A stretch of 64,000 nucleotides of DNA from Kiritimatiellia bacterium (GCA_045656285.1 JAZOQY010000041.1:129404-193403), one strand, 5' to 3'; shown: positions 3,575 through 58,755, numbered from the stretch's first letter. The notes: generated from the sequence alone by a model not told the origin. A program made the numbers and translations.

Positions 3575-4248
3575 ATGTTGTTCTCCATAAGGCTTATCAG
3601 GCGATCAAGTTCATCGGACGCAAGAACGACTCGCTCTGTCGAAAAACTTCTCTGTATCTCTCTGGCGTTAAGCACCACCGCACCGTTGAGTTCTGCGATG
3701 TGCGAAACGAAGGAATCCGAAGCAAAAACCAGAATCGGTATCACAGCCCCGTTCCAGCCCGCCTTTTCAAGCGTTCTTTTAACCGCCGCGGCCTCGTTCA
3801 GAACCTGGGCGAGAGGCGCACGGGACGGCTCGACTCCGTCGACAAGGATCCGCCCCTCCTCGATGGAGACCCTGCCGCGCCAGAACTTCGTTTCAACGGC
3901 GAAAACACCGGCCGGCCCGACCACGACATGATCGACCTGGCAGCCATCGGCGGAAAAATCGTTGAAGACATGATATGAGGACGAAAGTCCGGAAAGCAGA
4001 TTCGATACGCGCTCTTCGCCCCTGGCGCCGATAAAATGCCGTTCTATGCGCTTTACTCCGGATATCAATCCGGCGCATCCCAAGCCGAGGGAAACGACCA
4101 GCATCGACATGCCCACGACGAGATGCCCCGTCAACGCCAGAGTCACCGAAACCCCGGTCGCAAAAAAAGCCGCGAAAATCGGCACAAAACCGATGAACGT
4201 ACCTCTTATCCGGGCTCCTTCACCGGCCACACCGTGAATTTTAGCCAT
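3571..4248 (-). CDS. NERD-domain membrane protein (two N-terminal TM helices plus a nuclease-related domain)
   Basis: NERD signature HVFNDFSADGCQVDHVVVGPAGVFAVETKFWRG. The start is ambiguous: ATG at 4248 (MAKIHG…) or 4266. It overlaps the dxs stop by 8 or 26 bp. Confidence 0.6.
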   Translation of the reverse strand: MAKIHGVAGEGARIRGTFIGFVPIFAAFFATGVSVTLALTGHLVVGMSMLVVSLGLGCAGLISGVKRIERHFIGARGEERVSNLLSGLSSSYHVFNDFSADGCQVDHVVVGPAGVFAVETKFWRGRVSIEEGRILVDGVEPSRAPLAQVLNEAAAVKRTLEKAGWNGAVIPILVFASDSFVSHIAELNGAVVLNAREIQRSFSTERVVLASDELDRLISLMENNI

Positions 4249-7518: not shown

Positions 7519-7539
7519 TTCGTTTTTCTTTGATATATA

Positions 7540-7550
7540 ATTATACCAAA
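7540..7550 (-). promoter_or_regulatory. Candidate extended −10 element TTTGGTATAAT about 21 nt upstream of the GT-C gene's ATG
   Basis: Reverse complement of attataccaaa. The same motif recurs at 24231, 43265 and 46291. Confidence 0.4.
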
Positions 7551-7702
7551 TTCAGAAGTGGCATAGCAAACTTCAACAATCCGAAATCACAGGCGCAAAC
7601 ACATGTTTTCAGGCGCATCCGCCAAGGCATCTCGCCCCAAACGGCATCGCAGCACATTTCGGTGAAATCAGTCAGCCCCGCAGTCGAACAGGCGCATCGG
7701 AA

Positions 7703-43224: not shown

Positions 43225-43264
43225 AATTTCCCCTTCGGGGCGCATAACCCCTTTTGATTGTAAA

Positions 43265-43413: not shown

Positions 43414-46254
43414 TCACTTCTTGCTGTCGGGCGCTTTTTGAGGCGCAGGCGGCGGAATCGTAGCCGGAAGATCGCCGAGAACGGGAGCGCCCTTGGACAT
43501 CCTGTTCCTGTTCGATACAAACGTCACCGACTTCGTGGGCTTTTTAGGATTCTTCTTTTTAGCCTCAGCGCTCCACTTGTACGAAGAGCATCCGATCGCG
43601 CTATCAAAGCCGGGGCCGAACGCACAATTCGTGACAGTAATAGTACCCGCTACGGTATCACCGGGATTGGAAGAGCGCCAGTCGGAGATATCGCAGAAGA
43701 TTACGCCGGACTTCGCGGTCGTAGTAGCCTTGCAAGAATCGAACTCGATCTGACCGATACCATACGCACCGAGACGGAGGAAGTACTTACCGGGAACATC
43801 GAATGTGCAATTCTTAAACTTAATATTACTGGCTCTGACCCAATAGCCGTTCCACATAGATGTATTCGTAAACTTGCAGTTCTCAAACTCCATCGAGCCG
43901 CCTGAAATTCCGCCTAAGTAGCAGCCGTCAAATTCACAATTCTTAAAGGTCTGCTTACCTTCAAGGAAATTGCCAAATGAGACTTTATTAAACTTGCAGT
44001 CATCAAACACATTTCTGCCTCTGAAGGCGTTGAACTTACCGCCCTTCATGACAACGCCGTTCCACCTGCCGCTCATAATGTGATTGACCTGGCAGTTTTC
44101 GAAATAGCACCCTACCGCATTGGCAGGCGCCATAGCACGATTTGAAGCCTTGGAATTAACGAGACGCGCAGAGTCGCTTAACGAAACCCAAGCGTTATTG
44201 TTAGTACTCGTTGTCATCAAATCCAAATCGTAAAAGGCATAATCCCATCCTAAGCGCGAATCGCTTCTCGTTTGAGGAACGGAAAGTCCCTTTGAATATG
44301 TATTGCGGATAAAGCGCCCGTAACCGGAGCGATTCTGACTGTCGCAATAATATGAACCGGTAGTAAGCTTATTATCGCGGACGCAAGACGAATTAGTACG
44401 ACCCCAGAAATGAATCGCGCACTCGTTCTTTTCGAAAATGAAGTTATGACCGCAGCATGTAAGGAGCGAATTGTTAAGCATATTGCCGCTACACTTGTTC
44501 CCGATGAAGGTCGTATCCTGCATCATATCCCAGCCGTCTTCCGCGTCGAACGCGCACTTGGCGGCGGACTCTCCGCTGCGGGTAATAAAGTTACCCTCAA
44601 AGAGGAAGTTTCTCATCGCGCTTGCCGCGTAGCCTACACAGCGTGCGCGATCGAAAGTACAATTCTTAATAATGCAGTTTCTCGGGATGAAAAACGCGCA
44701 AAGAGTAAGCCCCGTCTTATTAGCCTCTTCCAACGACCAGTTAAGCTGGGTTACGCGCAAAAACGCGGCGTTGGCGGGAATCGGAATTTCGCGATACTGA
44801 TAAATCGTCTCGGACGAAATAAACTTTTTATCCTTATCGTACCAGCAACCGACGAGCTGCCACTGCTGAGAAGCGATGCCCTGATAACCGAGATACTTCG
44901 AGACTTGAACACGCTTAACCTTTTCGGGCTCAACCTTAACGAAGCCGCTCGTAAACTGAAGTTTACGATCCTCGATAAGCTCACCGGTCTTAGGATCGAG
45001 CGCACCCGGAACGAACTTACCAAGACCGCGATGATAACGATGGAGGGAACCATTACGCTTACCCATACCATTACTGCCGCCGTAGCCTGTAATATCCTTA
45101 ATGACTACATCTTGAACCGAGCAGTCAACCGACTCAGCAGAAATTGAAAATCCGAGCGGCCATTCGGGATTGTTGGGCAATGCGTCATAAAGATGCTCAA
45201 AATAATCACCTTCAATCGTACCGTTCACCAAGTGAGCGTCCTTAACGTCTGCAATTCTGACCATACAGCCGTGAACACCCGCAAACCCGTTACATTTAAT
45301 GGTAGCGCCGTTTAAGTCAAGCGTCATGTTCGAAGGTAAGCTAATCGATGAAAAACCGCTTATACGGTAAGTGCCGGGGAGCATAACAACCTTTTTAAAG
45401 CCGGCGGCCGCCTTATCATTAAGAAGTTTCTGTAAGCCCTGCGCCGTTTTTAAAGAGGTCTGTTCAACTTTATTCGTATCGTAACCAGAATCGTTTACGA
45501 CCTTAAGAGCACGCCAAGAGTTGAAAATGATATTTCCGCCGCGCGCTGGAGCATAAACCGTATAGCCGACCTTACCGTCATTAGCCTTAGTGGGATTTTC
45601 TTCGATGTACTTAGCGATTACTTCCTTATACATCTTAAACTGATCATTAAAGGCCATCTTCTTAGGCGGATGAGGAACTTCAACTAAAACCATACGCCCT
45701 AAATCGCCCTTATTGCAAATTTCGTACGCGTTAAGATCGTCAGCCGTCATCGTATATACTTTGTCGGCGGGGATTTTAAGATCCTCAGGAGTTACAACGC
45801 GGAAAGTATGCCAAACGCGATGAGATTCGAGATTATTAGCGCGATTTACCGCCCAAATGCAAACCTCATACTCGCCCTTCGGAAACGGCTTAAAGGAGAA
45901 CTTACCGTCACCCGCGCCAACATTATTCTTAGTTCGCTTAAGCTCACGCCCAGTCGAAGTAACAACCTTTAAGTAGACGTCAAAGCGATGGGAGTTATCA
46001 CGAAAACGCTCCTGGGAATGATTGTAATCGGTGACGTAATAACTAAACTCAACCTTCTCGTCAGTCGTCACAATAGGCTTAACGTAATAGGCCGAAACAT
46101 AAGGGAACTGACGTTCAACCGGCGCCTTAAAATAACGCGGGGGTTCGAAAACTTTCTTAAGATTCGAAGGATCAGTAAATTCACCTGGAATAACAGGCTG
46201 CGCAAAAAGCGAACCGGTCACTAAACACAAAGACAAAACTAATAACCTTTTCAT
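43414..46254 (-). CDS. Secreted right-handed parallel β-helix repeat protein (pectate-lyase-fold; possible polysaccharide lyase/hydrolase)
   Basis: Signal peptide MKRLLVLSLCLVTGSLFAQP. Many Asn/Cys-ladder β-helix repeats (…NCTFDRARCVGYAAS…IGNKCSGNMLNNSLLTCCGHNFIFEKNECAIHF…). Lys/Pro-rich C-terminal tail. Start re-picked (ATG 46252–46254); the track begins at a TTG 7 codons upstream. Confidence 0.6.
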   Translation of the reverse strand: MKRLLVLSLCLVTGSLFAQPVIPGEFTDPSNLKKVFEPPRYFKAPVERQFPYVSAYYVKPIVTTDEKVEFSYYVTDYNHSQERFRDNSHRFDVYLKVVTSTGRELKRTKNNVGAGDGKFSFKPFPKGEYEVCIWAVNRANNLESHRVWHTFRVVTPEDLKIPADKVYTMTADDLNAYEICNKGDLGRMVLVEVPHPPKKMAFNDQFKMYKEVIAKYIEENPTKANDGKVGYTVYAPARGGNIIFNSWRALKVVNDSGYDTNKVEQTSLKTAQGLQKLLNDKAAAGFKKVVMLPGTYRISGFSSISLPSNMTLDLNGATIKCNGFAGVHGCMVRIADVKDAHLVNGTIEGDYFEHLYDALPNNPEWPLGFSISAESVDCSVQDVVIKDITGYGGSNGMGKRNGSLHRYHRGLGKFVPGALDPKTGELIEDRKLQFTSGFVKVEPEKVKRVQVSKYLGYQGIASQQWQLVGCWYDKDKKFISSETIYQYREIPIPANAAFLRVTQLNWSLEEANKTGLTLCAFFIPRNCIIKNCTFDRARCVGYAASAMRNFLFEGNFITRSGESAAKCAFDAEDGWDMMQDTTFIGNKCSGNMLNNSLLTCCGHNFIFEKNECAIHFWGRTNSSCVRDNKLTTGSYYCDSQNRSGYGRFIRNTYSKGLSVPQTRSDSRLGWDYAFYDLDLMTTSTNNNAWVSLSDSARLVNSKASNRAMAPANAVGCYFENCQVNHIMSGRWNGVVMKGGKFNAFRGRNVFDDCKFNKVSFGNFLEGKQTFKNCEFDGCYLGGISGGSMEFENCKFTNTSMWNGYWVRASNIKFKNCTFDVPGKYFLRLGAYGIGQIEFDSCKATTTAKSGVIFCDISDWRSSNPGDTVAGTITVTNCAFGPGFDSAIGCSSYKWSAEAKKKNPKKPTKSVTFVSNRNRMSKGAPVLGDLPATIPPPAPQKAPDSKK

Positions 46255-46290
46255 AATTTGCTCTTTCATTTTCAAATTCTAAACTTTTGC

Positions 46291-46303
46291 ATTATACCAA
46301 AAA
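46291..46303 (-). promoter_or_regulatory. Candidate extended −10 element TTTTTGGTATAAT upstream of the β-helix gene
   Basis: Reverse complement of attataccaaaaa. Confidence 0.4.
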
Positions 46304-46389
46304 CACAACGCCGAACACAACGAGCGATATTTCCTGCAGACGCAAAAATGTTAAAAAACGGGACTCCTCGAAAACTTTCTCCGTTGGCG

Positions 46390-47787
46390 TCATTTAAAGA
46401 CTAATGTGGAGACCGACCATTCGCCGCCCGGTAACGGCAGCGATTTATACTTGCCTTTATACTTAACGACAATCCTGCGGCGTTGAATTTTACGGACGAG
46501 AGAACCGTCGGACGCGACGACCAGCACGTACTGACCGTCGGGATTGCGAAAGAGAATAAGGCGCGTTCCGTCTCTAAAGCCTTCCACATTCATAATGCGG
46601 GCGCCGCGCTTTACAAACGGGCCGATGTGCCTGAATAATTTATACTGAGGCGAATATGTAACATCGCCCGTAGTAGAATCTACGACCGTAAAGCCTCCGC
46701 AAAGATGTGCGCCTGTAGCCGGAGTACCTAATTCATCAAGGCAGATATTCCACGTCGTAAACATCGCACAGCCGTTCTGGAGGATACCGAACACTTTCGC
46801 CGCCCACCAGAATTCAGATCTTTCCTTTACTACGACATGAGGCCCGTTCTCCGTATGATAAAAGCCCTTATCAGCATACGCCGCTTTTAACGGCGCCATA
46901 TTCTCTGATTCCTTAGGATTGCAATAGCAATGCCAGGCGATACCGTCTACCGCATCGCTTACGCCTTCCATCGCCATCAGCTTTTTAACGCGCTCTATGC
47001 CGCGCTTATCGGGATCATGGTCATGAACCCAGATTTTAGTTTCTATTCCCGCTTTCTTGAAAGCCTTGGAAAGATGATCTCTAACGAATACACCTTCTTT
47101 CTCGGCACTGTATGTGCAGCATGGATATTGCCCGCCTGTATCGCACATGGTTTCGTTTTGAGGCGAGACAGCCGATATTTTTATGCCGCGCTTAGCGTAT
47201 TCTTCGACATATCTCACAAAATAATTGGCTAAAGCCCCCATCGAATCATCTTTAAGCTGGCCCGAAATCATCAAATTCGAATTTTTCATCCACGCCGGCG
47301 GGCTCCAAGGCGAAGCGAAGATAAACATATCAGGCTGATAGGCTATCGCCTCTTTTACCATAGGAACTAAATAATTATCATCGCGCGCCAATGAAAAATC
47401 TTTCATCTCCACATCGCCAGGCGTATCATTGTAACTGTAAAGAGCGGTTGAATAATCGCTAGCTCCGATACAAAGCCTAAGCGTACTTAAGTTACACCCT
47501 TCAGGCGTAAAAAGCTCCTTCATAAGCTTTTCACGCTTCTCTTTAGGCATATTCGCCAATATCCAGGCCGAAGCGTCGGTCATCGCCCCGCCTAGGCCTA
47601 AGAATTCATGCATCGACTTAGCTTTATCAACATCTAAGGCTGGCGCAGCCGGGTATGAGTGAATAGTAAACCCAGATGTTGTAATCTCGCGAAAATCTTT
47701 AGATGCAGTCGTCTGATAAAGACGCAGTTCGTCACCGCCCTCAGAAGCGATAAATGCTGCAGCAACAATAGGTAAAACAGAAATCAT
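46390..47787 (-). CDS. Glycoside hydrolase family 30 (glucosylceramidase/β-glycosidase-like)
   Basis: …MFIFASPWSPPAWMK… (the GH30 hallmark) and …LSAVSPQNE… (acid/base region). GAGGAG SD 8 nt upstream. Confidence 0.8.
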   Translation of the reverse strand: MISVLPIVAAAFIASEGGDELRLYQTTASKDFREITTSGFTIHSYPAAPALDVDKAKSMHEFLGLGGAMTDASAWILANMPKEKREKLMKELFTPEGCNLSTLRLCIGASDYSTALYSYNDTPGDVEMKDFSLARDDNYLVPMVKEAIAYQPDMFIFASPWSPPAWMKNSNLMISGQLKDDSMGALANYFVRYVEEYAKRGIKISAVSPQNETMCDTGGQYPCCTYSAEKEGVFVRDHLSKAFKKAGIETKIWVHDHDPDKRGIERVKKLMAMEGVSDAVDGIAWHCYCNPKESENMAPLKAAYADKGFYHTENGPHVVVKERSEFWWAAKVFGILQNGCAMFTTWNICLDELGTPATGAHLCGGFTVVDSTTGDVTYSPQYKLFRHIGPFVKRGARIMNVEGFRDGTRLILFRNPDGQYVLVVASDGSLVRKIQRRRIVVKYKGKYKSLPLPGGEWSVSTLVFK

Positions 47788-47822
47788 AAAAACACTCCTC
47801 GTTAGGAAACAAAGACCTCATT

Positions 47823-49658
47823 TCATCTTACGATTAAGCAATCAATTTCAGGGAGCTTGTCAGTCAGGTTAAAAAGCTTGATCTTATTCGAGCCGGAATT
47901 GAGTTTTACCGTGTAAGCTAAATCGATGAACTTCGCCTTATCTCCACCCTTCGCCTGAACCAATATTTTCTCTCCGTCATTGACCATCATATAAAACGCA
48001 CAATCTTTATCAGTTCGAATGCGAAGCGTAAGCGTATATTCGCCGGATTTAGGAACATAAACATCTCTCCATGTAAGCGTATTATCTTTATTCCCGCCGA
48101 GATTAGCGACAACCATACCACCTGACGCGCCTTCGACATCGTACCAGGTCGGAACAATGCGCGAGCCCTGACTACGCTTACCGAGATTATCGTATTCCGC
48201 GAGGAATGCGACCTCCGCCTCATAAACGACGCGATCTAATCTACGCTCCGCGTCAAAAAGATAGAACTTAGATGCGTGAGGTCTAAGACGAATCGTCACT
48301 TCGTCGGTAAACTCGCCTAAATCGCCGCGCTCGACGAGATCAAACGCCGCTATGGAGCCCGCTAAATCCAAGTCACGCGCTTTAATCGTAAACTCTTTCT
48401 CCTTGTCGCTCGTATTACATACGGCCACATAGCGCGAAGTGCCGCGTAATACAAAAGCGTCCTTAGTCAGCATATAAACTTCGCCCTCTCGCGCTGCGAC
48501 ATACGCCTGCAAGCCGAGGGGATCCTGATTCATTCTGATAAGAAAGGGATTCTTAACGAGTTTAAGAGACTCGCTATCCATATTCCTAACATCGCACCCG
48601 AGCATCAAAGGCGAAGTCATTATACACCACATACCGAAATGAGTCACCTCTTCATCGCGCGTAATCCCGGGATCTGTCTTGCCGAACGCAGACTTTACCT
48701 TACCCTTAAGCATACCGACCTCAAGCATATCCATATCATTGAACTTACCGGGTCTTACGTATGAAGCGAGATTAAAGGAATTGGTCGTAATAAATTTTAT
48801 AACTTCCCAATCAGCGCGAATGTCGCCCGAGGTGCGCCAAGAGTCCGACACGTCCGCCGCCCATGCACCCGGAAACGCCCAACGGCAGATGTTGTAGTGA
48901 ACATCCTTACCTGTAGCGCGAATAGCCTTCGAAATCTCCGTATAACGATCGCGCTCGGGGAGTTTCTGCTGATATCCGCCGCAGTAATCGACCTTAAAGA
49001 AATCAAAGCCGAGCTCATTGAAAAAGAGCTTACAATCCTCTACATCGTGCCCCCAAAGTCCCGCGCCCTTACCGCCTAATTCGCCCCCAAAGCTCGCGCA
49101 CGTATTAGTTCCCGCGTCAGAATAGATACCCGCTTTCATACCAAGAGCGTGAATCGCATCGACCGTACCCTTAAGCCCTTCGGGGAAACGCCGCGCATGA
49201 ATTTTAAGCTTACCGTCGGGATAACGGCCGTCAAAAAAGCCATCGTCTAAATTAACATAAACATAGCCCGCGTCTCTTAAGCCGTTAGTAACCATAGCGC
49301 GAGCCGTCTCTACGATTACGCCCTCCGAAATCTCCGCTCCGAAGGTATTCCAGCTCGACCACCCCATAAGCGGAGTTTTAGAATTGGCTAGCTTAATGGG
49401 CTTAGCGAGCTTAAGAAAGCGCTTCGCGCGCTCAACCATTTCAGCTCGCTTAAGCTCGCTTACTTTACTGCGATTTATGAACGCCTTTTTACCGTCCTCC
49501 GAAATGCGCATACGCTTATCGCATTTAGGACAGTCTACAAACTCCACTTGTAAATGAGAAGCGCGCGCTTCGGCCGACTTAGCCTCCGCGCACGCCTTAT
49601 TACAAGATATCAATACCGCTATTGAAACAAAAGGTGTTAATATCGCAGCGTAATTCAT
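47823..49658 (-). CDS. Glycoside hydrolase family 27 α-galactosidase/α-N-acetylgalactosaminidase-like, with a C-terminal β-sandwich domain
   Basis: …TPLMGWSSWNTFG…, …YVNLDDGFF…, …DFFKVDYCGG… (GH27 catalytic-region blocks). N-terminal signal peptide. Confidence 0.8.
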   Translation of the reverse strand: MNYAAILTPFVSIAVLISCNKACAEAKSAEARASHLQVEFVDCPKCDKRMRISEDGKKAFINRSKVSELKRAEMVERAKRFLKLAKPIKLANSKTPLMGWSSWNTFGAEISEGVIVETARAMVTNGLRDAGYVYVNLDDGFFDGRYPDGKLKIHARRFPEGLKGTVDAIHALGMKAGIYSDAGTNTCASFGGELGGKGAGLWGHDVEDCKLFFNELGFDFFKVDYCGGYQQKLPERDRYTEISKAIRATGKDVHYNICRWAFPGAWAADVSDSWRTSGDIRADWEVIKFITTNSFNLASYVRPGKFNDMDMLEVGMLKGKVKSAFGKTDPGITRDEEVTHFGMWCIMTSPLMLGCDVRNMDSESLKLVKNPFLIRMNQDPLGLQAYVAAREGEVYMLTKDAFVLRGTSRYVAVCNTSDKEKEFTIKARDLDLAGSIAAFDLVERGDLGEFTDEVTIRLRPHASKFYLFDAERRLDRVVYEAEVAFLAEYDNLGKRSQGSRIVPTWYDVEGASGGMVVANLGGNKDNTLTWRDVYVPKSGEYTLTLRIRTDKDCAFYMMVNDGEKILVQAKGGDKAKFIDLAYTVKLNSGSNKIKLFNLTDKLPEIDCLIVR

Positions 49659-49672
49659 AATTATAAGTTTTA

Positions 49673-51766
49673 TTATTCTTTAGTGAACTTTTCATCGAGC
49701 CATTGGCGACGCATCTGCTCAACGATAAAATCAACATTGAAAAGCTTCTCGCCGACTGCCGCGTAGATTTCAATGACTTCATCATCAGTCATCGTCTTCT
49801 TTATGCGGGCGGTATACGTATTAATCGAACTGACGAATGGCTTAACCTTCTTAAGGTAAAACTCCTGATCGCCAAGCTCGGGATCCTGCCACTTTTCAAT
49901 GTAACCGTTATTACGGGAACCGCAGGAATTTCCTAAGATCTTCTTGCCGACGATGAGAAGGCGGCGCTTGATCATCGCATCAGCCTCCTTGTCAAAGCCG
50001 GTGAACTTAAGTTCCGCGAACGAGGAGCGGTTGTGAACCGAGGGCGAACCACCGAGAGTGTATCCGCCGCGCATCCAGTGAATGAACTCGACATACCAGG
50101 CGGGAGTCTTCTCAGACGGAATCGATGCGAATACGCTCTCCCAAGGCATGGTTAAAAGAAGCGCGACCCCGTCATTGAGATAGACTGATTCTTGACGGAA
50201 GTTGGTCTTGGCAGTACGATGACCAGTGATGTTATCATACTGAGTCGTAAATGTAGCCGATAACTTTGCGCCCTCACGCGCGTCAATCATCAAGCAGTGG
50301 TACGGATTATCAATACCGGTAGCGACGTACGACTCAAATCCAGGGGGATTAGCAAGACCCATCTTAATATCGTCCATATTATCAAGGAACATTCTAAGCA
50401 TAATCCTTACACCAACCTCATCAGCATACGAAAAGAATTCCGTCGGGCGGAACTTAGAGCCGTCATCGAAAGTCATCTCGCGCCCTGTAATCGCCGCGTC
50501 CGTTTCGATAAGGAACTTAAGGTTTTCGCCATACTTAACGCTAAGAAGCGACTTTTTAGCCTTCTGATAGCGCTCTGAATCAAGAACGCCCGTTAAAGTG
50601 CGAGGGGCGTCGTTCCACCAGAAGCACTCGCACTTTACCTGCTCGCGAAGCGGAACAATCTTAGCATGAAAAGCTAAAATAACCTTAGTGGCCTTTTCAT
50701 CGCCCTTGGCGACCAACTTCTTGGCGACCTTCTCATAGACCTTGGCGAGCTCAATCTTATCGCCCTTCTTTTCGATCGTCTCAAGATACTTATTGCCGAT
50801 CTCCTCGGCCTTATCGGGATTGGCGAACATATCCGCCTCAGCTACAAAAAGCGCCGCGGCGTTACGGTCTTTAATATAACCCTTCTTATCACTCTCCTTC
50901 ATACCTTCAGGAGCCTTGGCAGCTAAAAACTCCTTAGCGTAAGCATAAGCCTTTTCGCTTAACACGGGGAACTTGACGGCATAAGTAAATTTAACTCTCG
51001 CGCTCGGGCCAGGAACATTCTTAGCGCGTTTTTCGACGAATTTAAGCAACTCTTCGGCGCACTCGACTGTAGCCATATAACCCTCAGCACGGAAAGAGGT
51101 GCTGATATAACGATAAACGTCATTTAAGATGTCGCTCTTGGGATTCATCGTGTACTGGCGATCCATCATCTCACCGATCTTATCGAACATATCCTTGCCG
51201 TAAGTCGCGTTGCAATAAGCGACATATTCACGAACGAGCCTGCCGTGATAACCGCGAGGAGCTTTAGCCTTCTTGAATTCGTCGTCGAAATATTCGGCCG
51301 TAATTTTATTTTTAGGCTTATCAGCAACTTTCGCCTTAGGGTTAAAGTCTACGAGTGATTTCAGATTAGCGCGCGAAGTCTCAGCAAGAACCTTATCGGC
51401 ATCGCTGAGCTGAAGCTTCTTAAAGGGATACTCAACCGCCTCCAAAGCCGCGGCGATATCACGCGTCGCTTCGAGATGACACCTGGCGATTTCGCTGCAA
51501 ATCTCGATCTTCTCCTTATTAAGATAAACATCCTTAGTAAGAGCCTCTTCGAGCTTAGCGCGCGCAGCATCAATGTCGTTATGCCAATAATCGGCAAAGC
51601 CGCCCTTGAAGTTTTTCTTGATAAGAGCGTCGGTCTCTTTTTTAAGAGCCTTCCAAGCCTCTTGGCTAACCTTAGCGGGATTGACAGGCTTCGCGGCTTT
51701 GTCAGCAGGCGCGGCAATAACCGCAGCCGCAGTCACTAAAGAAAGTACAAACAATAAATTTTTCAT
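49673..51766 (-). CDS. Secreted hypothetical protein, family A copy 1 (paralogue of 53759..55840)
   Basis: Signal peptide MKNLLFVLSLVTAAAVIAAP. α-helical N-terminal half. The conserved C-terminal half (…KFRPTEFFSYADEVGVR…PGFESYVATGIDNPYHCLM…TPAWYVEFIHWMRGGY…) is about 80% identical to A2. AAGGAG SD. Confidence 0.7.
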   Translation of the reverse strand: MKNLLFVLSLVTAAAVIAAPADKAAKPVNPAKVSQEAWKALKKETDALIKKNFKGGFADYWHNDIDAARAKLEEALTKDVYLNKEKIEICSEIARCHLEATRDIAAALEAVEYPFKKLQLSDADKVLAETSRANLKSLVDFNPKAKVADKPKNKITAEYFDDEFKKAKAPRGYHGRLVREYVAYCNATYGKDMFDKIGEMMDRQYTMNPKSDILNDVYRYISTSFRAEGYMATVECAEELLKFVEKRAKNVPGPSARVKFTYAVKFPVLSEKAYAYAKEFLAAKAPEGMKESDKKGYIKDRNAAALFVAEADMFANPDKAEEIGNKYLETIEKKGDKIELAKVYEKVAKKLVAKGDEKATKVILAFHAKIVPLREQVKCECFWWNDAPRTLTGVLDSERYQKAKKSLLSVKYGENLKFLIETDAAITGREMTFDDGSKFRPTEFFSYADEVGVRIMLRMFLDNMDDIKMGLANPPGFESYVATGIDNPYHCLMIDAREGAKLSATFTTQYDNITGHRTAKTNFRQESVYLNDGVALLLTMPWESVFASIPSEKTPAWYVEFIHWMRGGYTLGGSPSVHNRSSFAELKFTGFDKEADAMIKRRLLIVGKKILGNSCGSRNNGYIEKWQDPELGDQEFYLKKVKPFVSSINTYTARIKKTMTDDEVIEIYAAVGEKLFNVDFIVEQMRRQWLDEKFTKE

Positions 51767-51784
51767 TTTAAAAAACTCCTTTTC

Positions 51785-53632
51785 TTACTTGCCCAACGCC
51801 TTGCGCATCTTAAGGATATAATCAATCATCTCAAGGCGAGCGAGATTTAAGTCTACAGAGTCGCGCTTAAGCATCGCTAAATACATGCGCGCTTTCTTAG
51901 CGAGAAGTCTCGCATCAACATCGCCCTTCTTAAGGCACTCTTCAGAGAGCTCTTTAAGATAAGTCGCGTAACGAATATCGTCGCAAGCCTCGCGGAAGCC
52001 CGCGTACTGAATCGTCTCCAAAAGACCCTTATTATCGTTGTAGGTAACAACCATCGGACGATAAAGCGTATAGGCGCGGTCATTTAAGACTCCAAGCTCA
52101 AACTCATAGTTGTACGCCATCGTCGCACCGTTAAGCCAGCCTAAAAGGCCGTGCTGACGACGCGTAAATTGGGGGTTCTCGCTGGCGGTGTGCTGCGCGG
52201 CATAAAACCCGAGCCACGTATCGCCGATTTCGCGCCAGGGACGCGTCTTTTCGAGCATAGTATCGGGCGAAGTACCAAGCGGCATAAACGAATAGACATA
52301 ACCGCCCTTATACAAAAGCGCTTCGTGACCGGCGCAGCCGATATGAATGCCATGGCGCTCAAACTCGCGGAAGAGTTCGCGGTGAGTCGTTACGAACGCA
52401 GTACCCTGCTCATCGCCATGGGCACAGAGAATCGTAGAACCGGGTAAAAGCTTATCGTAATATTCTTTAGTCTTACGAACCGAAACTACAGAATCATAAT
52501 AATTCTTCCAGCTCATGCGACCGCCATAATTAAGCCCGAACCAGGGCACCAGTGAATTGCAGATTACAACATCAAGCGGAAAGCCGACCTTGCGCAACTC
52601 GCTGACAACCCACTCCTGATGCTCTTTATTACCCTCATAAATAAAAGGAGCATGGAACATCGAGTGATTATAGAGCGATTTTAGCTGACCTAAATAATAT
52701 TCCTTAGCCTTCTTCTCATCACCGAGCGCACGTTTAAGACGCCCGAGATTCGGCATAGCGCCCATGCAGGTATGAAGATAAGGCTTATTGGGCTCAAGAT
52801 AACCCTTCGGCATGGGAAGCTCAAAGGGAAGAACCTTAACAGCCATCGGGATTGTAGCGAGAGTCTTACCCTTGTGAGTAACGGCTACCTTACCCTTATA
52901 AAGGCCGCTCTTCTGGGTCTTTTCGGCATTGACGGTAATAAAGAACTGCTTAAAGGAATCCTTCTCAAGCTTAACGGGCAGAAGCTTATCAGCATCGCGA
53001 AATCCTTCGGTATACTGATTAAAGCCACTCCTGTAGGATTCAGCCTTCTTAGGGGCCGAAACCCAATAGAAAGTATCCTTACCATCCTTGCGAACACGGG
53101 CGTAGTTGGCGGGATCCTTATCCTTGACTACCTTGATAAGATCCTCGTCATGGAGCAGAAGTTCCGGCGTAAGTTTAAGACCAGTATCATCGAAGTAGCT
53201 GACCCAGCCGTTACCGTTCTGGAACCAAAGCTTAACTACGCGGATATCGTTGTTAAGACCAGGTAAATCGACCTTAAGCTCAACATCATCGAGATCCTTA
53301 AACGAGAAAAGCTGGAAAGAGCAGGACTCAAACTCGCCCTGAGCCAAAACGCACTTAACAGTACCGTTAAGCTCACCATCATCCGGCCATGTATCATCCA
53401 GGCGCATAATCTCGCTCATCGCGGGAACTGCGAAATACGCGACATCGCCCTTCACGCCCGCATCCTTAAGGCGCTTAGCGTTAACCTTTTTAAGCTCCTT
53501 AGCGCGTTCGCGCTGAGCATTCCAAACGGTATCCTCGACACCAGCCAACGAATTAAGCGGAAGTGCAGTTGAAAGCGTAACCGCTATAGTCGACATTAAA
53601 ACCGACAATGATGAGATAGTACTATTTTTCAT
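51785..53632 (-). CDS. Secreted hypothetical protein, family B copy 1 (paralogue of 55860..57692); possible glycoside-hydrolase-like fold
   Basis: Signal peptide. Shared blocks with B2 (…FAVPAMSE(I/L)MRL(D/E)DTWP(D/E)DG…VVKLWFQNGNGWVSYF…LCAHGDEQGTAFVT…RRQHGLLGWLNGATM…). Confidence 0.7.
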   Translation of the reverse strand: MKNSTISSLSVLMSTIAVTLSTALPLNSLAGVEDTVWNAQRERAKELKKVNAKRLKDAGVKGDVAYFAVPAMSEIMRLDDTWPDDGELNGTVKCVLAQGEFESCSFQLFSFKDLDDVELKVDLPGLNNDIRVVKLWFQNGNGWVSYFDDTGLKLTPELLLHDEDLIKVVKDKDPANYARVRKDGKDTFYWVSAPKKAESYRSGFNQYTEGFRDADKLLPVKLEKDSFKQFFITVNAEKTQKSGLYKGKVAVTHKGKTLATIPMAVKVLPFELPMPKGYLEPNKPYLHTCMGAMPNLGRLKRALGDEKKAKEYYLGQLKSLYNHSMFHAPFIYEGNKEHQEWVVSELRKVGFPLDVVICNSLVPWFGLNYGGRMSWKNYYDSVVSVRKTKEYYDKLLPGSTILCAHGDEQGTAFVTTHRELFREFERHGIHIGCAGHEALLYKGGYVYSFMPLGTSPDTMLEKTRPWREIGDTWLGFYAAQHTASENPQFTRRQHGLLGWLNGATMAYNYEFELGVLNDRAYTLYRPMVVTYNDNKGLLETIQYAGFREACDDIRYATYLKELSEECLKKGDVDARLLAKKARMYLAMLKRDSVDLNLARLEMIDYILKMRKALGK

Positions 53633-53638
53633 AATTGC

Positions 53639-53669
53639 ATTTTACTAAATAGCGTCGCTTAAATGCAAT
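53639..53669 (-). promoter_or_regulatory. Candidate σ70-type promoter for B1: −35 TTGCAT, 18-nt spacer, −10 TAAAAT, 6 nt before the ATG (leaderless-like)
   Basis: Minus-strand sequence reads TTGCAT-TTAAGCGACGCTATTTAG-TAAAAT-GCAATT-ATG. The TAGTAAAAT(G/A)CAAT block is repeated upstream of B2 at 57766–57780. Confidence 0.35.
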
Positions 53670-53687
53670 GAAAAATATAATTTTTAC

Positions 53688-53727
53688 GGCGTTCTTGAGG
53701 GCTCTTAAAAGAGTCCTCAAGAACGCC
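53688..53727 (-). terminator. Perfect 13-bp-stem hairpin (GGCGTTCTTGAGG…CCTCAAGAACGCC) followed on the minus strand by an A/U-rich tract: a likely intrinsic terminator between the two tandem modules
   Basis: Arms at 53688–53700 and 53715–53727. The loop has an inner ctctt/aagag pairing. Downstream on the minus strand comes GTAAAAATTATATTTTT. Confidence 0.5.
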
Positions 53728-53758
53728 GTGATGGCGACTGCTATTTAACGATAAAAGC

Positions 53759-55840
53759 TTATTCGTCCGTAAAGACGTCGTCGAGCCATTCGCGGCGCAT
53801 ATTCTCAACGATGAAGTTGATATTGAGCATCTTCTCGCCGACGGCATCGTAAGTCTCGAGAACCTCGTCTTCGGTCATAGCCGGCTTAATCTTCTTAAGA
53901 TACGGAGTAATCGAATCTACGAGGGGCTTAACCTTAGCGAGATAGAACTTCTGGTCTCCAAGCTCGGGGTCGGACCACTTTTCGATATAACCGTTCTCGC
54001 GCGGCGAACAAGACGCGTTAAAGATGTTCCTACCCTTAATAAGGAGCTTACGCTTAATAACAGCCATAGCCGCCTTATCAAAGCCAGTAAACTTCATCTC
54101 AGCGAACGAGGAGCGCGAGTGAACGGTCGTCGAACCGCCGAGACTGTAACCGCCCTTCATCCAGTTGATGAACTCGACATACCAAGCGGGTGTCTTATCG
54201 CTCGGGATCGAAGCGAAGACGAGTTCCCACGGGAATGTAATGAGCGAGGCTACGCCATCATCAAGATATACGGTATCGATTCTAATGTTGTTCCTGTTAG
54301 CGCGATGACCCGTAAAGTTATCGTACTGAGTTAAGAACGAAGCATCCATCTTACCCCCTTCTTTAGGCGAGAACATAAGGCAGTGATAAGGTGAATCAAT
54401 ACCCGTAGCGACATAAGACTCAAATCCGGGAACGCCAGCGAAGCCGTTCTTAACATCATTAATATTATCGAGGAAGAGTCTCAAAATCATTCTTACGCCC
54501 TCACCGTCAGCATAGGCGAAGAACTCGGTCGGGCGGAACTTAGCTCCATCGTCAACCGTCATCTCGCGCCCAGTAAGCGCCGCGTCAGTTTCGATAAGGA
54601 ACTTAAGATTGTCGCCGTACTTCAAATTAAGAAGACCCTTCTTAGCCTTGGCGTAAACGGGAGAGTCAACTACGCTCTTAACGTCGCGCGGCGCATCCGC
54701 CCACCAGAAGCACTCCGTCTTAACCTGCTTACGCGCAGGAACGACCTTCTCACGCATAGCGAGAACTTTGCGAAGAGCCTTCTCGTTATGCTTCTTATTG
54801 AGCTGTTTAGCGACATCCGAGAGGAACTTCGCGTACTCTACCTTATCGCCCTTCTTATTGATCGACTCGAGATAATCCTCGGCGATGTCATCAGCATCGG
54901 AATAATCCTCGACCGCGTCAGTAAGCGCTACATAGCGCTTAGCCTGAACTAAAGCGTTGTCAATGCGCTTTTGAGCGTGGGGATCCTTAACCGTAACGGG
55001 ATTAGCGATAAATTCTTTAGCGAACTTATAAGCATACGACTCTAAGTATGTAAACCTAGAAGTATAATCAAAAAGCTCCTGTGCGCCAGGGCGTCTTTTA
55101 TCTGTTCGCTTAGTAATGAACTCTATTAAAGCCTTACGACCTTCAGCTGTAGATGTATACCCGGTAGGATTCCAAAGAACAGCTAACCCACGATAAGCAG
55201 CTATAAGCGCATCAGAATTCGGATTTAACTTAAGATTAGCATCTAACATCTTCTCAAGCTTCTCGAACATCTTATCGCCATAAGTCATATTACAGAACTT
55301 AGCATATTCCTGAGCGTTATTATAGCCATATCCATGAGGAGCTTTAGCCTTAGAAAAGATTTCGTTAAAATATTTTTCATCCTTAACGACCTTAGGCTTA
55401 GCAGTTGGATCAGGAATTGGATCAACGCTCGTTAAACGCTTAACCTCAGCGAGTTTCGCCGCGGCTAAATCGCGATCCGCGCCCTGGAGATTAAGATTCT
55501 TAATCGGATACTCGACAGCAGCAATCGCCGCGTTCACATCGCGCGTCGCTTCGAGATGACATCTCGCGATTTGGCGGCAGATTTCGATCTTCTCTCTAGG
55601 AAGATAAATATCCTTTCGGAGTTCTTCATTGAGTTTCTTAAGCGCGGCGTCTATATCGTTGTGCCAATAGTTGGCGAAACCACCTTTAAAGTTCTTTCTT
55701 ATAAGATCGTCTGTCGACTTCTTAAGCGCCATCCAAGCATTTTGGCTCGCTTTAGCTGGGCTTATCGGCTTTTTAGGCGCGGGAGCAGCTACTACAGCGA
55801 AAGCCGCCAACAAAGATAATACAAACATCAACTTTTTCAT
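53759..55840 (-). CDS. Secreted hypothetical protein, family A copy 2 (paralogue of 49673..51766)
   Basis: Signal peptide MKKLMFVLSLLAAFAVVAAP. Collinear with A1 over its full length. AAAGGAG SD. Confidence 0.7.
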   Translation of the reverse strand: MKKLMFVLSLLAAFAVVAAPAPKKPISPAKASQNAWMALKKSTDDLIRKNFKGGFANYWHNDIDAALKKLNEELRKDIYLPREKIEICRQIARCHLEATRDVNAAIAAVEYPIKNLNLQGADRDLAAAKLAEVKRLTSVDPIPDPTAKPKVVKDEKYFNEIFSKAKAPHGYGYNNAQEYAKFCNMTYGDKMFEKLEKMLDANLKLNPNSDALIAAYRGLAVLWNPTGYTSTAEGRKALIEFITKRTDKRRPGAQELFDYTSRFTYLESYAYKFAKEFIANPVTVKDPHAQKRIDNALVQAKRYVALTDAVEDYSDADDIAEDYLESINKKGDKVEYAKFLSDVAKQLNKKHNEKALRKVLAMREKVVPARKQVKTECFWWADAPRDVKSVVDSPVYAKAKKGLLNLKYGDNLKFLIETDAALTGREMTVDDGAKFRPTEFFAYADGEGVRMILRLFLDNINDVKNGFAGVPGFESYVATGIDSPYHCLMFSPKEGGKMDASFLTQYDNFTGHRANRNNIRIDTVYLDDGVASLITFPWELVFASIPSDKTPAWYVEFINWMKGGYSLGGSTTVHSRSSFAEMKFTGFDKAAMAVIKRKLLIKGRNIFNASCSPRENGYIEKWSDPELGDQKFYLAKVKPLVDSITPYLKKIKPAMTEDEVLETYDAVGEKMLNINFIVENMRREWLDDVFTDE

Positions 55841-55859
55841 TTTTAAAACTCCTTTATTC

Positions 55860-57692
55860 TTACTTACCGAGGGCCTTGCGCATTTCCATAATATAGCGAA
55901 TCATCTCAAGACGGGCGAGATTTAAATCTACAGACTCGCGATTGAGCATCGCCAAATACATAAGCGACTTCTTAGCCGTGATGCGCGCATCGACATCGCC
56001 CTTCTCTAAGCACTCGTCAGCGAGCTGCTTAAGATACGTACCATAGCGGATATCGTCACAAGCTTCGCGGAATCCGGCGTACTGAATCGTCTCCATAAGA
56101 CCCTGAGAGTTAGCGTAAGTTACGACCATCGGGCGATAAAGAACCGCGTCAAGATCGTTAAACTTACCAATCGCGAACGCATAGTTAAACGACATAGTAG
56201 CGCCATTAAGCCAGCCTAAAAGACCGTGCTGACGACGCGTGAACTGGGGATTCTCGCTCCCTGTATGCTGACAAGCGTAAAAGCCGAGGTAATCAGCACC
56301 GATTTCGCGCCAAGGACGCGTAGACTCGTACATATTGTCAGGGCGAGAGCCAATAGGCTGGAACGAATAAGCGTATCCTCCCTTATAAAGCAATGCTCCG
56401 TGACCCGCGCAACCTAAATGAATACCATACTTCTCATATTCGCGGAACATTTCGCGGTGAGCCGTAACAAAGGCCGTACCCTGTTCATCGCCGTGAGGAC
56501 AAAGAATAGTCGCGCCGGGGAAGTGCTTAGAATAATACTCGTGGCACTTTTTAGCGCCCTTCTTAGCGTCCATGACATTCTGCCAGCTCATGCGACCGCC
56601 GTAGTTAAGCGCGTACCAAGGAACGAGGGGACTACCCATAACTACATCGAGAGGAAATCCGATTTCCTTAAGCATAGGAATGCACCACTCGTTACTGCCG
56701 TTAAAGTAGGGAGCGTGGAACATGGAATGATCATAAAGCGACTGAAGCTGATTTCTGAAATACTTCATAGCCTTCTCTTTATCGCCGCCGAAATTCGTGG
56801 TAATGTGACCTAAAGACGGCATTGCGCCCATGCACGAATGAACGTACGAAACCTTAGGATTAAGGTAGCCCTTAGGGAAGGGAAGCTCGAAGGGAAGAAC
56901 CTTAACAGCTAAGGGAACAGTGTGAAGGAGCTTACCCTTGCGAGTAACCTTAACTACGCCCTTGTAAACGCCAGGCTTTTGATCTTTAGCAGCCTTAATC
57001 GTAAGGAAGAACTGCTTAAAGGAATTCTTCTCGAGTTTTACCGGCTGAAGCTTATCGGCATCAACAAAGCCCTCATCGTACTGATTGAACGATCCCGCGC
57101 CTGATTCAGCAGCACGAGGAGCCGTAATCCATAAGAACTTATCCTTACCGTCCTTGCGAACGCGCGCATAGTTGGCAGGCTCTTCGTCCTTTACGACCTT
57201 AATAAGATTTTCATCATGAAGAAGAAGCTCCGGGGTAAGCTTAAGACCAACGTCTTCAAAGTAGCTGACCCAACCGTTACCGTTCTGGAACCAAAGCTTA
57301 ACGACGCGAAGATCATTCTCAAGCTTAAGATCTACGTCCAACTCTACATTTTCAAGATTCTTAAACGAGAAAAGCTGGAATGAGCAAGCTTCAAACTCAC
57401 CCTTGGCGAGAACAGTCTTAACCGTACCATTAAACTGACCATCTTCAGGCCAAGTATCCTCTAAGCGCATAAGTTCGCTCATCGCGGGAACTGCGAAGTG
57501 AACTACATCACCCTCGCCCTTCATAGCCTTAATGCGCTCGGCATTAACCTTCTTAAGCTCCTCAGCGCGCTCACGCTGAGAATGCCAAACGGATCTATCG
57601 ACTCTAACCTCAGAGTCGGCAAACGCCGCGCACACCGTCAACTGCATAAAAAGCGCCGAAAGCGCAACAGTTTTCAACGAACTTGCATTCAT
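55860..57692 (-). CDS. Secreted hypothetical protein, family B copy 2 (paralogue of 51785..53632)
   Basis: Signal peptide MNASSLKTVALSALFMQLTVCAAFA. Collinear with B1. AAAGGAAAA SD 8 nt upstream of the ATG. Confidence 0.7.
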   Translation of the reverse strand: MNASSLKTVALSALFMQLTVCAAFADSEVRVDRSVWHSQRERAEELKKVNAERIKAMKGEGDVVHFAVPAMSELMRLEDTWPEDGQFNGTVKTVLAKGEFEACSFQLFSFKNLENVELDVDLKLENDLRVVKLWFQNGNGWVSYFEDVGLKLTPELLLHDENLIKVVKDEEPANYARVRKDGKDKFLWITAPRAAESGAGSFNQYDEGFVDADKLQPVKLEKNSFKQFFLTIKAAKDQKPGVYKGVVKVTRKGKLLHTVPLAVKVLPFELPFPKGYLNPKVSYVHSCMGAMPSLGHITTNFGGDKEKAMKYFRNQLQSLYDHSMFHAPYFNGSNEWCIPMLKEIGFPLDVVMGSPLVPWYALNYGGRMSWQNVMDAKKGAKKCHEYYSKHFPGATILCPHGDEQGTAFVTAHREMFREYEKYGIHLGCAGHGALLYKGGYAYSFQPIGSRPDNMYESTRPWREIGADYLGFYACQHTGSENPQFTRRQHGLLGWLNGATMSFNYAFAIGKFNDLDAVLYRPMVVTYANSQGLMETIQYAGFREACDDIRYGTYLKQLADECLEKGDVDARITAKKSLMYLAMLNRESVDLNLARLEMIRYIMEMRKALGK

Positions 57693-57843
57693 ATATTTTC
57701 CTTTAATTTCAGTAACTTTTCACTTAAACAATGGCCCTCAAAAATAATATAGGTCTATTTTTGAAGATTGTATTTTACTAAAAACTAACAATAAGATACA
57801 ATGGAAATTTTAAACGAAAAAAGAAAAATGTTAAGATAATTTG

Positions 57844-57858: not shown

Positions 57859-58755
57859 ATGATTCACGAAATACAAAAACTTAAAAAAGAGCGCAACGCC
57901 GTCATCCTCGCCCATAATTACACTTTGGGAGAAGTACAGGATGCGGCAGACTATACCGGCGACTCTCTTGAACTTGCTCGCCGTGCCGTTCAGGTTGATG
58001 CCGACGTGATTCTCTTTTGCGGCGTTTACTTCATGGCCGAGACGGCCAAAATCCTGAATCCATCCAAAACGGTTCTTATACCCGATGCCTCCGCCGGCTG
58101 TCCTATGGCAGACATGATAACCGGAGCCCAGCTTCGGGAACTTAAAAAAGCACACCCCGGGGCCGTCACCGTTTGCTATGTAAACTCAACCGCCGAAGTT
58201 AAGGCCGAATGCGACATTTGCGTAACGAGCGGCAACGCTGAAAAAGTAATGGCGACTATCGGACGCGACAAAAAGATACTCTTCGTCCCCGATCGCCATC
58301 TGGGTTCTCACATCGCCGCGAAAGAAGGCCGCGAGTACGTTCTGTGGCAGGGCCACTGCCCCATCCACAACGCCCTCTCGCCAGAAACCGTCAGAGCGAT
58401 GCGCGCCAAGCACCCCGGCGCACCTGTTCTCGTGCACCCCGAATGCCCTAAAGAGGTCCGCGATCTCGCCGACGAATGTCTCTCTACCGGCGGCATGTGC
58501 GCTTATGCGCAAACCTCCACGGCGGATAAGATCCTGGTTGGAACCGAAATAGGGATTCTCCATCGACTCCGCAAGGAAAACCCGGCCAAGACCTTCATTC
58601 CGATATCGACGGAGCTTGTCTGCGCAGACATGAAAAAGATCACACTCGAAAACATTCTGGCGTCTCTCAGGAACATGGAGACGAAAGTCGAAGTTCCCGC
58701 CGAAACATCGTCGAAGGCACGCCGTGCCATCGAAGCGATGCTTGCGGTCTGCTGA
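57859..58755 (+). CDS. nadA: Quinolinate synthase A
   Basis: …AVILAHNYTLGEVQDAADYTGDSLELA…ILFCGVYFMAETAKIL…, [4Fe-4S] Cys ligands, 298 aa. One of only two plus-strand genes. Confidence 0.9.
   Translation: MIHEIQKLKKERNAVILAHNYTLGEVQDAADYTGDSLELARRAVQVDADVILFCGVYFMAETAKILNPSKTVLIPDASAGCPMADMITGAQLRELKKAHPGAVTVCYVNSTAEVKAECDICVTSGNAEKVMATIGRDKKILFVPDRHLGSHIAAKEGREYVLWQGHCPIHNALSPETVRAMRAKHPGAPVLVHPECPKEVRDLADECLSTGGMCAYAQTSTADKILVGTEIGILHRLRKENPAKTFIPISTELVCADMKKITLENILASLRNMETKVEVPAETSSKARRAIEAMLAVC

Follow-up and report, generated by a model that had tools for sequence, protein, structure and literature searches.

A tandemly duplicated gene pair of Kiritimatiellia that may encode a two-component glycosidase related to GH123

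The DNA analysed here, called the window, is a stretch of 64,000 nucleotides (nt) from a Kiritimatiellia bacterium (GCA_045656285.1, JAZOQY010000041.1:129404-193403). Its minus strand carries two copies of a two-gene module, each made of a gene for a protein B followed by a gene for a protein A, in the order B2-A2, spacer, B1-A1. The tandem duplication as such is ordinary, and the interest lies in the B-A pair, which is obligate, widespread and sometimes fused. Our reading is that B and A are the catalytic subunit and the glycan-binding partner of a two-component glycosidase that has been duplicated as a unit, and we give it an even chance of being right. We infer the physical interaction of B with A, the glycan binding by A, and the chemistry and substrate of B.

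The pairing was counted in loci retrieved with B only: distant B homologs were looked up in three cases, and metagenomes were scanned with the B alignment, which gave B identities of 31–96%. These loci were then searched with a hidden Markov model of the A C-terminal domain (C-domain), and those with at least 3 kb of sequence downstream of B were counted. In the metagenome loci, an A C-domain gene lies immediately downstream on the same strand in 42/42 B genes. It also comes directly after B in 27/27 cases among all other loci, which include those of the three look-ups and those retrieved with A (a locus scan with a 20-sequence alignment). The sole miss, at a threshold of 2.5 kb, is a contig ending early.

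In some organisms B and A are joined in a single polypeptide. Such fusions account for 5 of the 150 representative clusters listed (P0175, P0250, P0242, P0210 and P0273); over ~600 amino acids (aa), P0175 shares 40% identity with B1 and P0250 34%, and in two fusions the linker is only 95–150 aa. At one comparison locus (L033; such loci are given L numbers throughout), a very divergent second module at 4602–7650 has a 698-aa B-like protein and then a 310-aa protein that is the A C-domain only. This module sits directly upstream of a standard B-A pair. Given the fusions with 95–150-aa linkers and the C-domain-only partner, the sequence comparisons single out the A C-domain as the conserved partner of B, with the TPR part as a connector that is not always present.

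The strict adjacency of the two genes, their fixed order, the fusions and the co-duplication amount to strong genomic evidence, from which we infer a joint action of B and A, in the simplest case within a complex. For expression work, the strict pairing means that each B will probably need its cognate A expressed alongside it. Literature searches on Kiritimatiell* with GH123 and on DUF4091 found no description of the pair. The Pfam and NCBIfam models leave A and B hypothetical, and both are invisible to annotation with those libraries. If the pair is indeed a two-subunit enzyme, a widespread, unannotated glycosidase family and a new partner domain would join the catalogue of carbohydrate-active enzymes.

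For the window's B proteins, Pfam gives only sub-threshold GH123_N matches, and sequence searches of NCBIfam and the PDB give nothing. B belongs to a large family of at least 287 clusters (90% identity), whose members, where named in the sources, are called 'hypothetical' or given an unrelated DUF name. An AlphaFold2 (AF2) model of B1 was built on 51 sequences and has a pLDDT of 85.8 and a pTM of 0.88. It consists of an N-terminal β-sandwich, an eight-stranded (β/α)8 barrel and a C-terminal helical bundle.

In a Foldseek search of the PDB with this model, ranks 1–22 are all GH123 or GH123-like β-N-acetylgalactosaminidases (β-NGAs), with E-values down to 3e-20. The alignments are full-length (606–677 columns) with TM-scores (TMt) of 0.44–0.68, or 0.57–0.68 at ranks 1–19, and 10–14% identity. 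The top matches include 8k2j, 8k2g, 5l7v, 8k2l and 5fr0 (E 3e-20 to 1e-13), and also 8p4l, 8k2n and 8k2h. Among the 51 family members, GH123_N is matched by 41 and GH123_N_2 by 40, mostly below the gathering score.

The profile comparison points the same way for the N-domain. In hhalign, the B family aligns with the Group-1 β-NGAs (five enzymes, the first 400 aa of each, from Supplementary Data 3 of PMC11087588) over B1 aa 65–276 at a Prob of 97.5% and an E-value of 6.4e-12. A reading of the window made from its sequence without database searches, called here the sequence-only reading, had held that neither family matches anything nameable. For B this did not hold, as its fold and N-domain profile match the GH123-like β-NGA superfamily.

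The predicted catalytic residues of B1 are D407 and E408, which are invariant in the 51 family members and follow a predicted strand at 400–404. They are aligned to the catalytic D287-E288 of NgaCa in hhalign runs with -mact 0.05 and with -glob. According to PMC11087588, GH123 and Groups 1–4 all use a DE motif at this position for substrate-assisted catalysis. Such an Asp-Glu pair is characteristic of GH123 and its relatives, which cleave a β-linked N-acetylhexosamine (HexNAc), N-acetylgalactosamine (GalNAc), by a retaining, substrate-assisted mechanism. By the same chemistry, B would cleave a β-linked HexNAc, most likely GalNAc, with D407 orienting the acetamido group and E408 serving as the acid/base residue.

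Several observations weigh against this assignment. The alignment of D407-E408 with the DE pair of NgaCa falls in a low-confidence extension of the hhalign alignment. Pfam DUF4091 (PF13320), the signature common to GH123 and its known relatives, is matched by 0/51 B members at E ≤ 1. The barrel of B is undetectable by HMMER sequence comparison against the PDB, and the DUF4091 region gives a weak, short local match (B 533–565 with NgaCa 444–476). Moreover, the alignment, gapped in this part, pairs the N-domain Asp by which DUF4091 is anchored in known enzymes with a Lys of B. Here hhalign sets the Group-1 W-Y-P-D motif against W190-x-x-x-P194-K195 of B, with the Lys at the Asp position and gaps there. 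The suggestion to try GH123- or DUF4091-like models on B proved correct for the fold and for the N-domain profile, though not for Pfam DUF4091.

Because DUF4091 is not matched, the barrel goes undetected by sequence, a Lys is aligned with the anchoring Asp and B has an insertion that Group 1 lacks, we place B, on its model, beside GH123 and not within it, as a secreted and very divergent new branch. The insertion is B1 aa 136–163 (window 53144–53227; WFQNGNGWVSYFDDTGLKLTPELLLHDE, WFQNGNGW...LLLHDE), 28 aa that are invariant and are inserted relative to the Group-1 GH123-like enzymes. It is the most conserved stretch of the B family, with aa 141–148 modelled at low confidence, and is a candidate interface for the partner A. 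Matches of B to TPR_8 and CTPR near aa 292–318 were dismissed as compositional.

The three-part architecture of B is the same as that of GH123 (CpNga123, 5fqe/5fr0; BvGH123, 5l7r) and of the GH123-like Groups 1–4 (Sumida et al. 2024), for which NgaCa (8k2f/g), NgaDssm (8k2j), NgaP2 (8k2l), NgaLy (8k2n) and NgaAt (8k2h) were compared. Their N-terminal β-sandwich is homologous to that of B, the A-x-GE[YF]E motif included, their Asp-Glu pair likewise comes after β4, and a short R-x-x-x-DD-x-R-Y segment of B resembles the DUF4091 core. Beyond the low identity, the undetected barrel and the unmatched DUF4091, they differ from B in lacking the 28-aa insertion. Their conserved N-domain Asp (D95 in NgaLy) is hydrogen-bonded to a Tyr and an Arg of DUF4091, whereas a Lys is aligned there in B. 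B is always encoded with, or fused to, an A domain, but PMC11087588 mentions no such partner for the GH123-like enzymes.

Sequence searches of Pfam, NCBIfam and the PDB give no meaningful match for A. A word-indexed search finds only 18 close relatives, and an exhaustive search finds 367 representative clusters (50% identity) with the C-domain. Only a handful of the closest relatives align full length, whereas the others share just the last ~320 aa, which stand behind N-termini of 290 to >1000 aa. The AF2 model of A1 (pLDDT 92) has a helical solenoid at aa 30–370, a β-sandwich at ~375–590 and four C-terminal helices. Residues 30–370 are all-helical, as befits a TPR repeat solenoid. Pfam TPR models do not match A1 and A2 themselves; TPR_12 is matched by 24/55 distant A homologs with E-values down to 1e-16, and those are genuine TPR repeats.

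Foldseek with the A1 model has the carbohydrate-binding module (CBM) family CBM9 at ranks 1–3 (E 2.6e-4 to 8e-4, TMt 0.52–0.60). Its other matches are the DOMON-like γ subunit of ethylbenzene dehydrogenase and otherwise TPR proteins (the TPR domains of LGN and LapB). At E ≤ 10, searches with the isolated C-domain return no sequence from the PDB, and searches with 16 C-domains no Pfam family. Within it, 11 positions are invariant in 55 sequences down to ~18% identity (T422, D423, R429, E478, Y510, W542, P550, H578, F588, D633 and F636), and R580 and S581 are nearly so. The four-helix C-terminal extension is also conserved, with a W-x-DP-x-LGD-x-x-FY motif. As modelled, A carries a previously undescribed ~320-aa domain with a weak CBM9-like fold match.

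In our reading, A would be a secreted non-catalytic partner. Its TPR-like solenoid would dock on or hold B, and its CBM9-like-fold C-terminal domain, with the invariant polar and aromatic residues, would bind or present the glycan substrate. The fused polypeptides of some organisms would then encode the same two-subunit enzyme in one chain. The best fold matches to the β-sandwich are CBM9 (CBM9-2 of Xyn10A of Thermotoga maritima, 1i82; Caldicellulosiruptor 7nwn/7nwo) and the DOMON-like 2ivf_C, and CBM9 accompanies a glycoside hydrolase (GH), as does the A domain. The A domain differs from both in its larger size, its four-helix extension and its usual place on a separate polypeptide behind a TPR solenoid.

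The binding role has its own counter-evidence. The CBM9 resemblance is weak (E 2.6e-4) and has no sequence or profile support, as Pfam CBM9_1, CBM9_2 and DOMON match neither the window's A proteins nor the 55 distant homologs. A hhalign comparison of the C-domain with a true CBM9_1 protein, encoded beside a B gene in L032, gives a Prob of 0.2%, that is, no relation. Five of the invariant residues are charged (D423, R429, E478, H578 and D633), a number that would be less usual in a CBM than in an active site. The CBM9_1 protein itself, 257 aa with a genuine Pfam match, is encoded at 7118–7891 of L032. A distant B-A pair comes directly after it, and nearby on the opposite strand there is a heparinase II/III-like gene.

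The same residues are the main argument for an alternative, in which the C-domain is a new catalytic domain besides that of B, such as a β-sandwich lyase, hydrolase or esterase, and B-A is bifunctional, removing two successive features of one glycan. Invariance of 11 residues in 55 sequences, T422, Y510 and the five charged ones included, with R580 and S581 close to it, agrees with this alternative, as do the lack of a profile relation to true CBM9 and the occurrence of the C-domain apart from TPR, as the 310-aa protein and fused directly to B. We consider it unlikely, though, since the best fold matches are the non-catalytic CBM9 and a DOMON-like subunit instead of β-jelly-roll enzymes, and no catalytic family is matched by sequence. 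The strict 1:1 pairing in a fixed order also fits subunits better than pathway neighbours.

Enzymes with a dedicated partner are known elsewhere. The GH136 lacto-N-biosidase LnbX needs the chaperone LnbY to fold, and the GH2 LacLM is a heterodimeric glycosidase. As here, the gene directly downstream of the glycosidase gene encodes a partner and is co-transcribed and co-conserved with it. Their folds are unrelated, and the partner here is a TPR and β-sandwich protein that is fused to the enzyme in some organisms.

By analogy with LnbY and LnbX, A could be a chaperone that serves the folding or maturation of B in the periplasm, or could regulate B, and in either case stay outside the working enzyme. 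A TPR-like solenoid is indeed a typical protein-binding scaffold, and the B and A genes are strictly adjacent and translationally coupled. But it is the TPR part that is dispensable, as the fusions with short linkers and the C-domain-only partner tell, and the universally conserved part is the β-sandwich domain. As the stable fusions further argue for a permanent association, we regard a chaperone role as quite improbable.

Taken at its widest, the two-component glycosidase might represent a new obligate, occasionally fused class of GHs. B would then found a new GH family beside GH123, its essential partner domain would be a new CBM acting in trans or a new catalytic domain, and paralogous pairs would co-diversify as matched sets that define the specificity. 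This wider proposal is a tentative one, and we lean somewhat to the doubtful side of it.

The duplication itself is well defined. The sequence-only reading had described a tandem, pairwise collinear two-gene module, and the open reading frames (ORFs) lie exactly where it had placed them and are collinear over their full lengths. The alignment of A1 with A2 covers 702 columns at 58% identity and that of B1 with B2 616 columns at 67% (E = 0 for both), far beyond chance. In codon alignments, the nucleotide identity is 63% between the A copies and 71% between the B copies. The Nei-Gojobori dS values of 1.9 (A) and 1.3 (B) are saturated, and with dN at 0.36 and 0.24, respectively, dN/dS is ~0.18. 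Thus, the duplication is old and both copies are under purifying selection.

The divergence is unevenly spread. The A copies are 74% identical in their first 100 aa, signal peptide included, and 71–72% in their last 300 aa, and they diverge mainly at aa 100–400 with 34–52% identity. The B copies diverge most in the signal-peptide region and at aa 300–400. It had been said that the C-terminal halves are similar and that the N-terminal regions and signal peptides diverge. This describes the signal peptide of B and the last 300 aa of A, but not the signal peptide of A, whose divergent stretch is aa 100–400 and not the N-terminal end.

Both genes were copied as one unit together with the promoter, as the earlier reading had it, since the promoter blocks are homologous and the B and A trees congruent. 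B1/B2 and A1/A2 form sister clades in the trees, which were built by neighbour joining from B and from the A C-domain. Whole-module duplications arose independently in L029 and L045, and older paralog pairs are present in L033 and L075. Hence, the module of promoter, B and A duplicates as a unit, and repeatedly. The copies in the window would go back to a single duplication in the ancestor of this Kiritimatiellia clade.

Each paralog has orthologs of its own. Those in L005, L016 and L017 are 97–98% identical to B2 and 90–91% to A2. In related genomes, the two types also stand at separate loci, with B1-A1-GH27 in L001, L009, L010, L013 and L015 and B2-A2 in L005–L008 and L017. This separation and the saturated dS exclude a recent local event, and a recent duplication in situ was likewise ruled out by the saturated dS and the separate orthologs of each paralog.

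The same separation (L001 and L013 for one type, L005 and L017 for the other) could be taken to mean that the genome truly has one copy or two unlinked copies, joined in tandem only by an assembly artefact or as a chimera. Copies only 63–71% identical in nucleotides are too divergent to mis-assemble, which makes a collapsed or expanded repeat implausible. Moreover, the same A2-spacer-B1 junction recurs in an independent metagenome-assembled genome (MAG) from yak rectum, RGIG9840, whose contig L016 has B2-A2, a near-identical 126-nt spacer and then B1. Its contig L012 has B1-A1-GH27-GH30-β-helix. Tandem B-A-B-A arrays are found also in L029, L033 and L045. We therefore reject the artefact, which the sequence-only reading had named as a possible refutation, as extremely improbable.

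Sub-functionalisation of the two copies is plausible, as they differ mainly in the TPR part of A and linkage to GH27 is confined to B1-A1. Only B1-A1 is in an operon with GH27 and, here, also GH30, which suggests that the paralogous pairs would act on different though related glycans in the same degradation pathway.

Each module appears, from its sequence, to carry its own sigma-70-type promoter. A conserved block, TTCATTGCAT-N18-TAGTAAAAT, precedes all B genes of both types (window, L005, L009, L015, L016 and L017), and the promoter block is conserved in seven loci. Its B2-type form is kept in L005, L016 and L017 and its B1-type form in L016, L009 and L015. The duplicated block TAGTAAAAT(G/A)CAAT that had been noticed earlier was found before both B genes and is the -10 part of this promoter. 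Each promoter would drive a B-A message, and the B1-A1 message would probably continue into GH27 and GH30.

The starts of the two B types are built differently. In B2-type genes, a strong Shine-Dalgarno sequence, AAAGGAAAA, lies within a leader of ~72 nt. The ATG of B1 (53632) stands 6 nt past the -10 TAAAAT without a Shine-Dalgarno sequence, and in B1-type genes generally (window 53630–53668; L001, L009, L013, L015 and L016) the ATG comes 6–7 nt past the -10, again with no Shine-Dalgarno sequence. L001 and L013 are thus among the loci that keep this -10-to-ATG spacing. From the spacing and the missing Shine-Dalgarno sequence, the B1 transcript is predicted to be leaderless. In L013, the ~200 nt 5′ of B1 (~3660–3750) hold short tandem-like repeats of the type GAGTCATAGGTATGGCTATGGG, which stand where the conserved -35 block of the other loci has been replaced.

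Within the modules, B is followed by A after 18 nt (B1-A1) or 19 nt (B2-A2). AGGAG is seen in both gaps, which bears out the Shine-Dalgarno coupling at 18–19 nt proposed earlier.

The spacer after A2 contains a strong stem-loop, whose 101-nt segment folds at -35.9 kcal/mol (z = -7.05). The hairpin is conserved in L016, and a different one is found at the same place in L005 and L017. It had been called a perfect 13-bp hairpin terminator. The stem-loop is real, with 15 + 4 bp, but a U-tract directly after it is absent, the next bases being GUAAAAAUUAUAUUUUU, so it is terminator-like but not a canonical terminator, and a terminator scan made no minus-strand call there. The hairpin may be a terminator or a stabiliser. 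The missing U-tract also counts against our reading, as transcription of B2-A2 may read through into B1.

Table 1. Features of the locus and its flanks, in window positions
Feature	Position	Strand	Description
B2	55860-57692	minus	610 aa, predicted secreted GH123-like glycosidase, upstream copy; ORF, 67% identical to B1
B2 Asp402-Glu403	56484-56489	minus	predicted catalytic pair; gap-free alignment to B1 D407-E408
B2 promoter	57772-57801	minus	predicted; -35 TTGTAT (57801-57796), 18-nt spacer, -10 TAAAAT (57777-57772)
A2	53759-55840	minus	693 aa, putative secreted partner: TPR-like solenoid and conserved C-terminal domain; 58% identical to A1
A2 Shine-Dalgarno sequence	55849-55853	minus	AGGAG in the 19-nt B2-A2 gap, direct reading
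A2 C-terminal domain	53762-54739	minus	aa 368-693
Hairpin after A2	53686-53729	minus	15 + 4 bp (19-bp interrupted), loop UUUA
A2-B1 spacer			126 nt
B1 promoter	53639-53668	minus	predicted; -35 TTGCAT (53668-53663), 18-nt spacer, -10 TAAAAT (53644-53639)
B1	51785-53632	minus	615 aa, predicted secreted GH123-like glycosidase, downstream copy
B1 Asp407-Glu408	52409-52414	minus	predicted catalytic pair (HGDEQG), directly after barrel strand β4
A1	49673-51766	minus	697 aa, putative secreted partner; aa 30-370 TPR-like helical solenoid
A1 Shine-Dalgarno sequence	51776-51780	minus	AGGAG in the 18-nt B1-A1 gap, direct reading
A1 C-terminal domain	49676-50653	minus	aa 372-697, conserved β-sandwich and helical part
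GH27	47823-49658	minus	611 aa, α-galactosidase-type, weak CBM35-like tail; 14 nt after A1
GH30	46390-47787	minus	465 aa, glucosylceramidase / β-glucosidase / β-1,6-glucanase type
β-helix protein	43414-46275	minus	953 aa, secreted; last gene of the low-GC island
guaB	41728-43245		flanking housekeeping gene
nadA	57859-58755	plus	flanking housekeeping gene; followed by the Fe-ADH gene, rpoN and the type II secretion system (T2SS) ATPase gene

The transcription order on the minus strand is B2, A2, spacer, B1, A1, GH27, GH30 and β-helix protein. The modules had been placed downstream of the β-helix, GH30 and GH27 genes; this is reversed, as they sit upstream (5′) in the direction of transcription. 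Sec signal peptides, read from the translations, are present on both the A and the B proteins. The view of A and B as uncharacterised, secreted and carbohydrate-related proteins is supported.

The neighbours are recognisable glycosidases. GH27 matches Pfam Melibiase_2 above the gathering score (136.5 bits, 1.5e-39), its closest PDB sequences are 4ogz, 4nzj and 1uas, and its closest solved relatives are α-galactosidases. Seven loci (L001, L009, L010, L012, L013, L015 and L025) have this gene together with B1-A1, at 92–99% identity. GH30 matches Glyco_hydro_30 above the gathering score (139.1 bits, 2.3e-40) and is closest in the PDB to 2wnw (SrfJ), 5ngk (a Bacteroides GH30) and the human glucosylceramidase GBA.

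The β-helix protein matches Pfam Beta_helix below the threshold; no family reaches the threshold, and the PDB holds no relative by sequence. Its match to the NCBIfam anti-phage HalA model (26 bits against a cut-off of 250) and its pentapeptide and MfpA-like repeat matches were dismissed as repeat noise. Homologs of 43–85% identity lie beside B-A pairs in L015 (14104–16890), L023 (3784–6489 and 10738–13263), L024 (2121–4859) and L026 (3195–5714), and the protein may be a third component of the system. GH27, GH30 and the β-helix protein would remove neighbouring residues, for example α-Gal or α-GalNAc and β-Glc. A glycosphingolipid-like or mucin-like target would fit the set of GH123-like, GH27 and GH30 enzymes, a speculation that draws on the known activities of these families.

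The seven genes form an island (window 43414–57692) with a GC content of 47.6%, compared with 55.5% in the rest of the window. The GC content at third codon positions is 0.49–0.55 in the island genes and 0.77 in guaB. In other genomes, the module has ~48–49% GC in L001, L005, L013, L016 and L017, where the host flanks range from 44.6% to 52.2%, and 52–53% in the more distant L009 and L015. No integrase, transposase or other mobile-element genes are found at the island edges in the window.

The identity of the modules exceeds that of the hosts. On L017, an 80-kb contig, the housekeeping proteins are mostly 66–80% identical to those of the window (92% for T2SSE), whereas B2 is 97% and A2 90% identical. 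The B1, A1 and GH27 of L013, which belongs to the same MAG as L017, are 95–98% identical to those of the window. The chromosomal context differs too, as the tandem island of L016 adjoins polA, an aminotransferase gene and a transporter gene and not nadA. The foreign GC, the module identity above that of most housekeeping proteins and the differing contexts suggest that the module has been exchanged by recent horizontal transfer among the Kiritimatiellia of ruminant and horse guts. This exchange and the link with GH27 and GH30 point to a shared herbivore-gut glycan, possibly with GalNAc or another HexNAc.

A gene of the Exo_endo_phos family (PF03372; sphingomyelinase, phosphatase or nuclease fold) follows GH27 in L009 (11014–11925), L010 (6417–7328) and L013 (9693–10604). 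In L016, a fusion of BSP and Exo_endo_phos is encoded near the island (980–2596).

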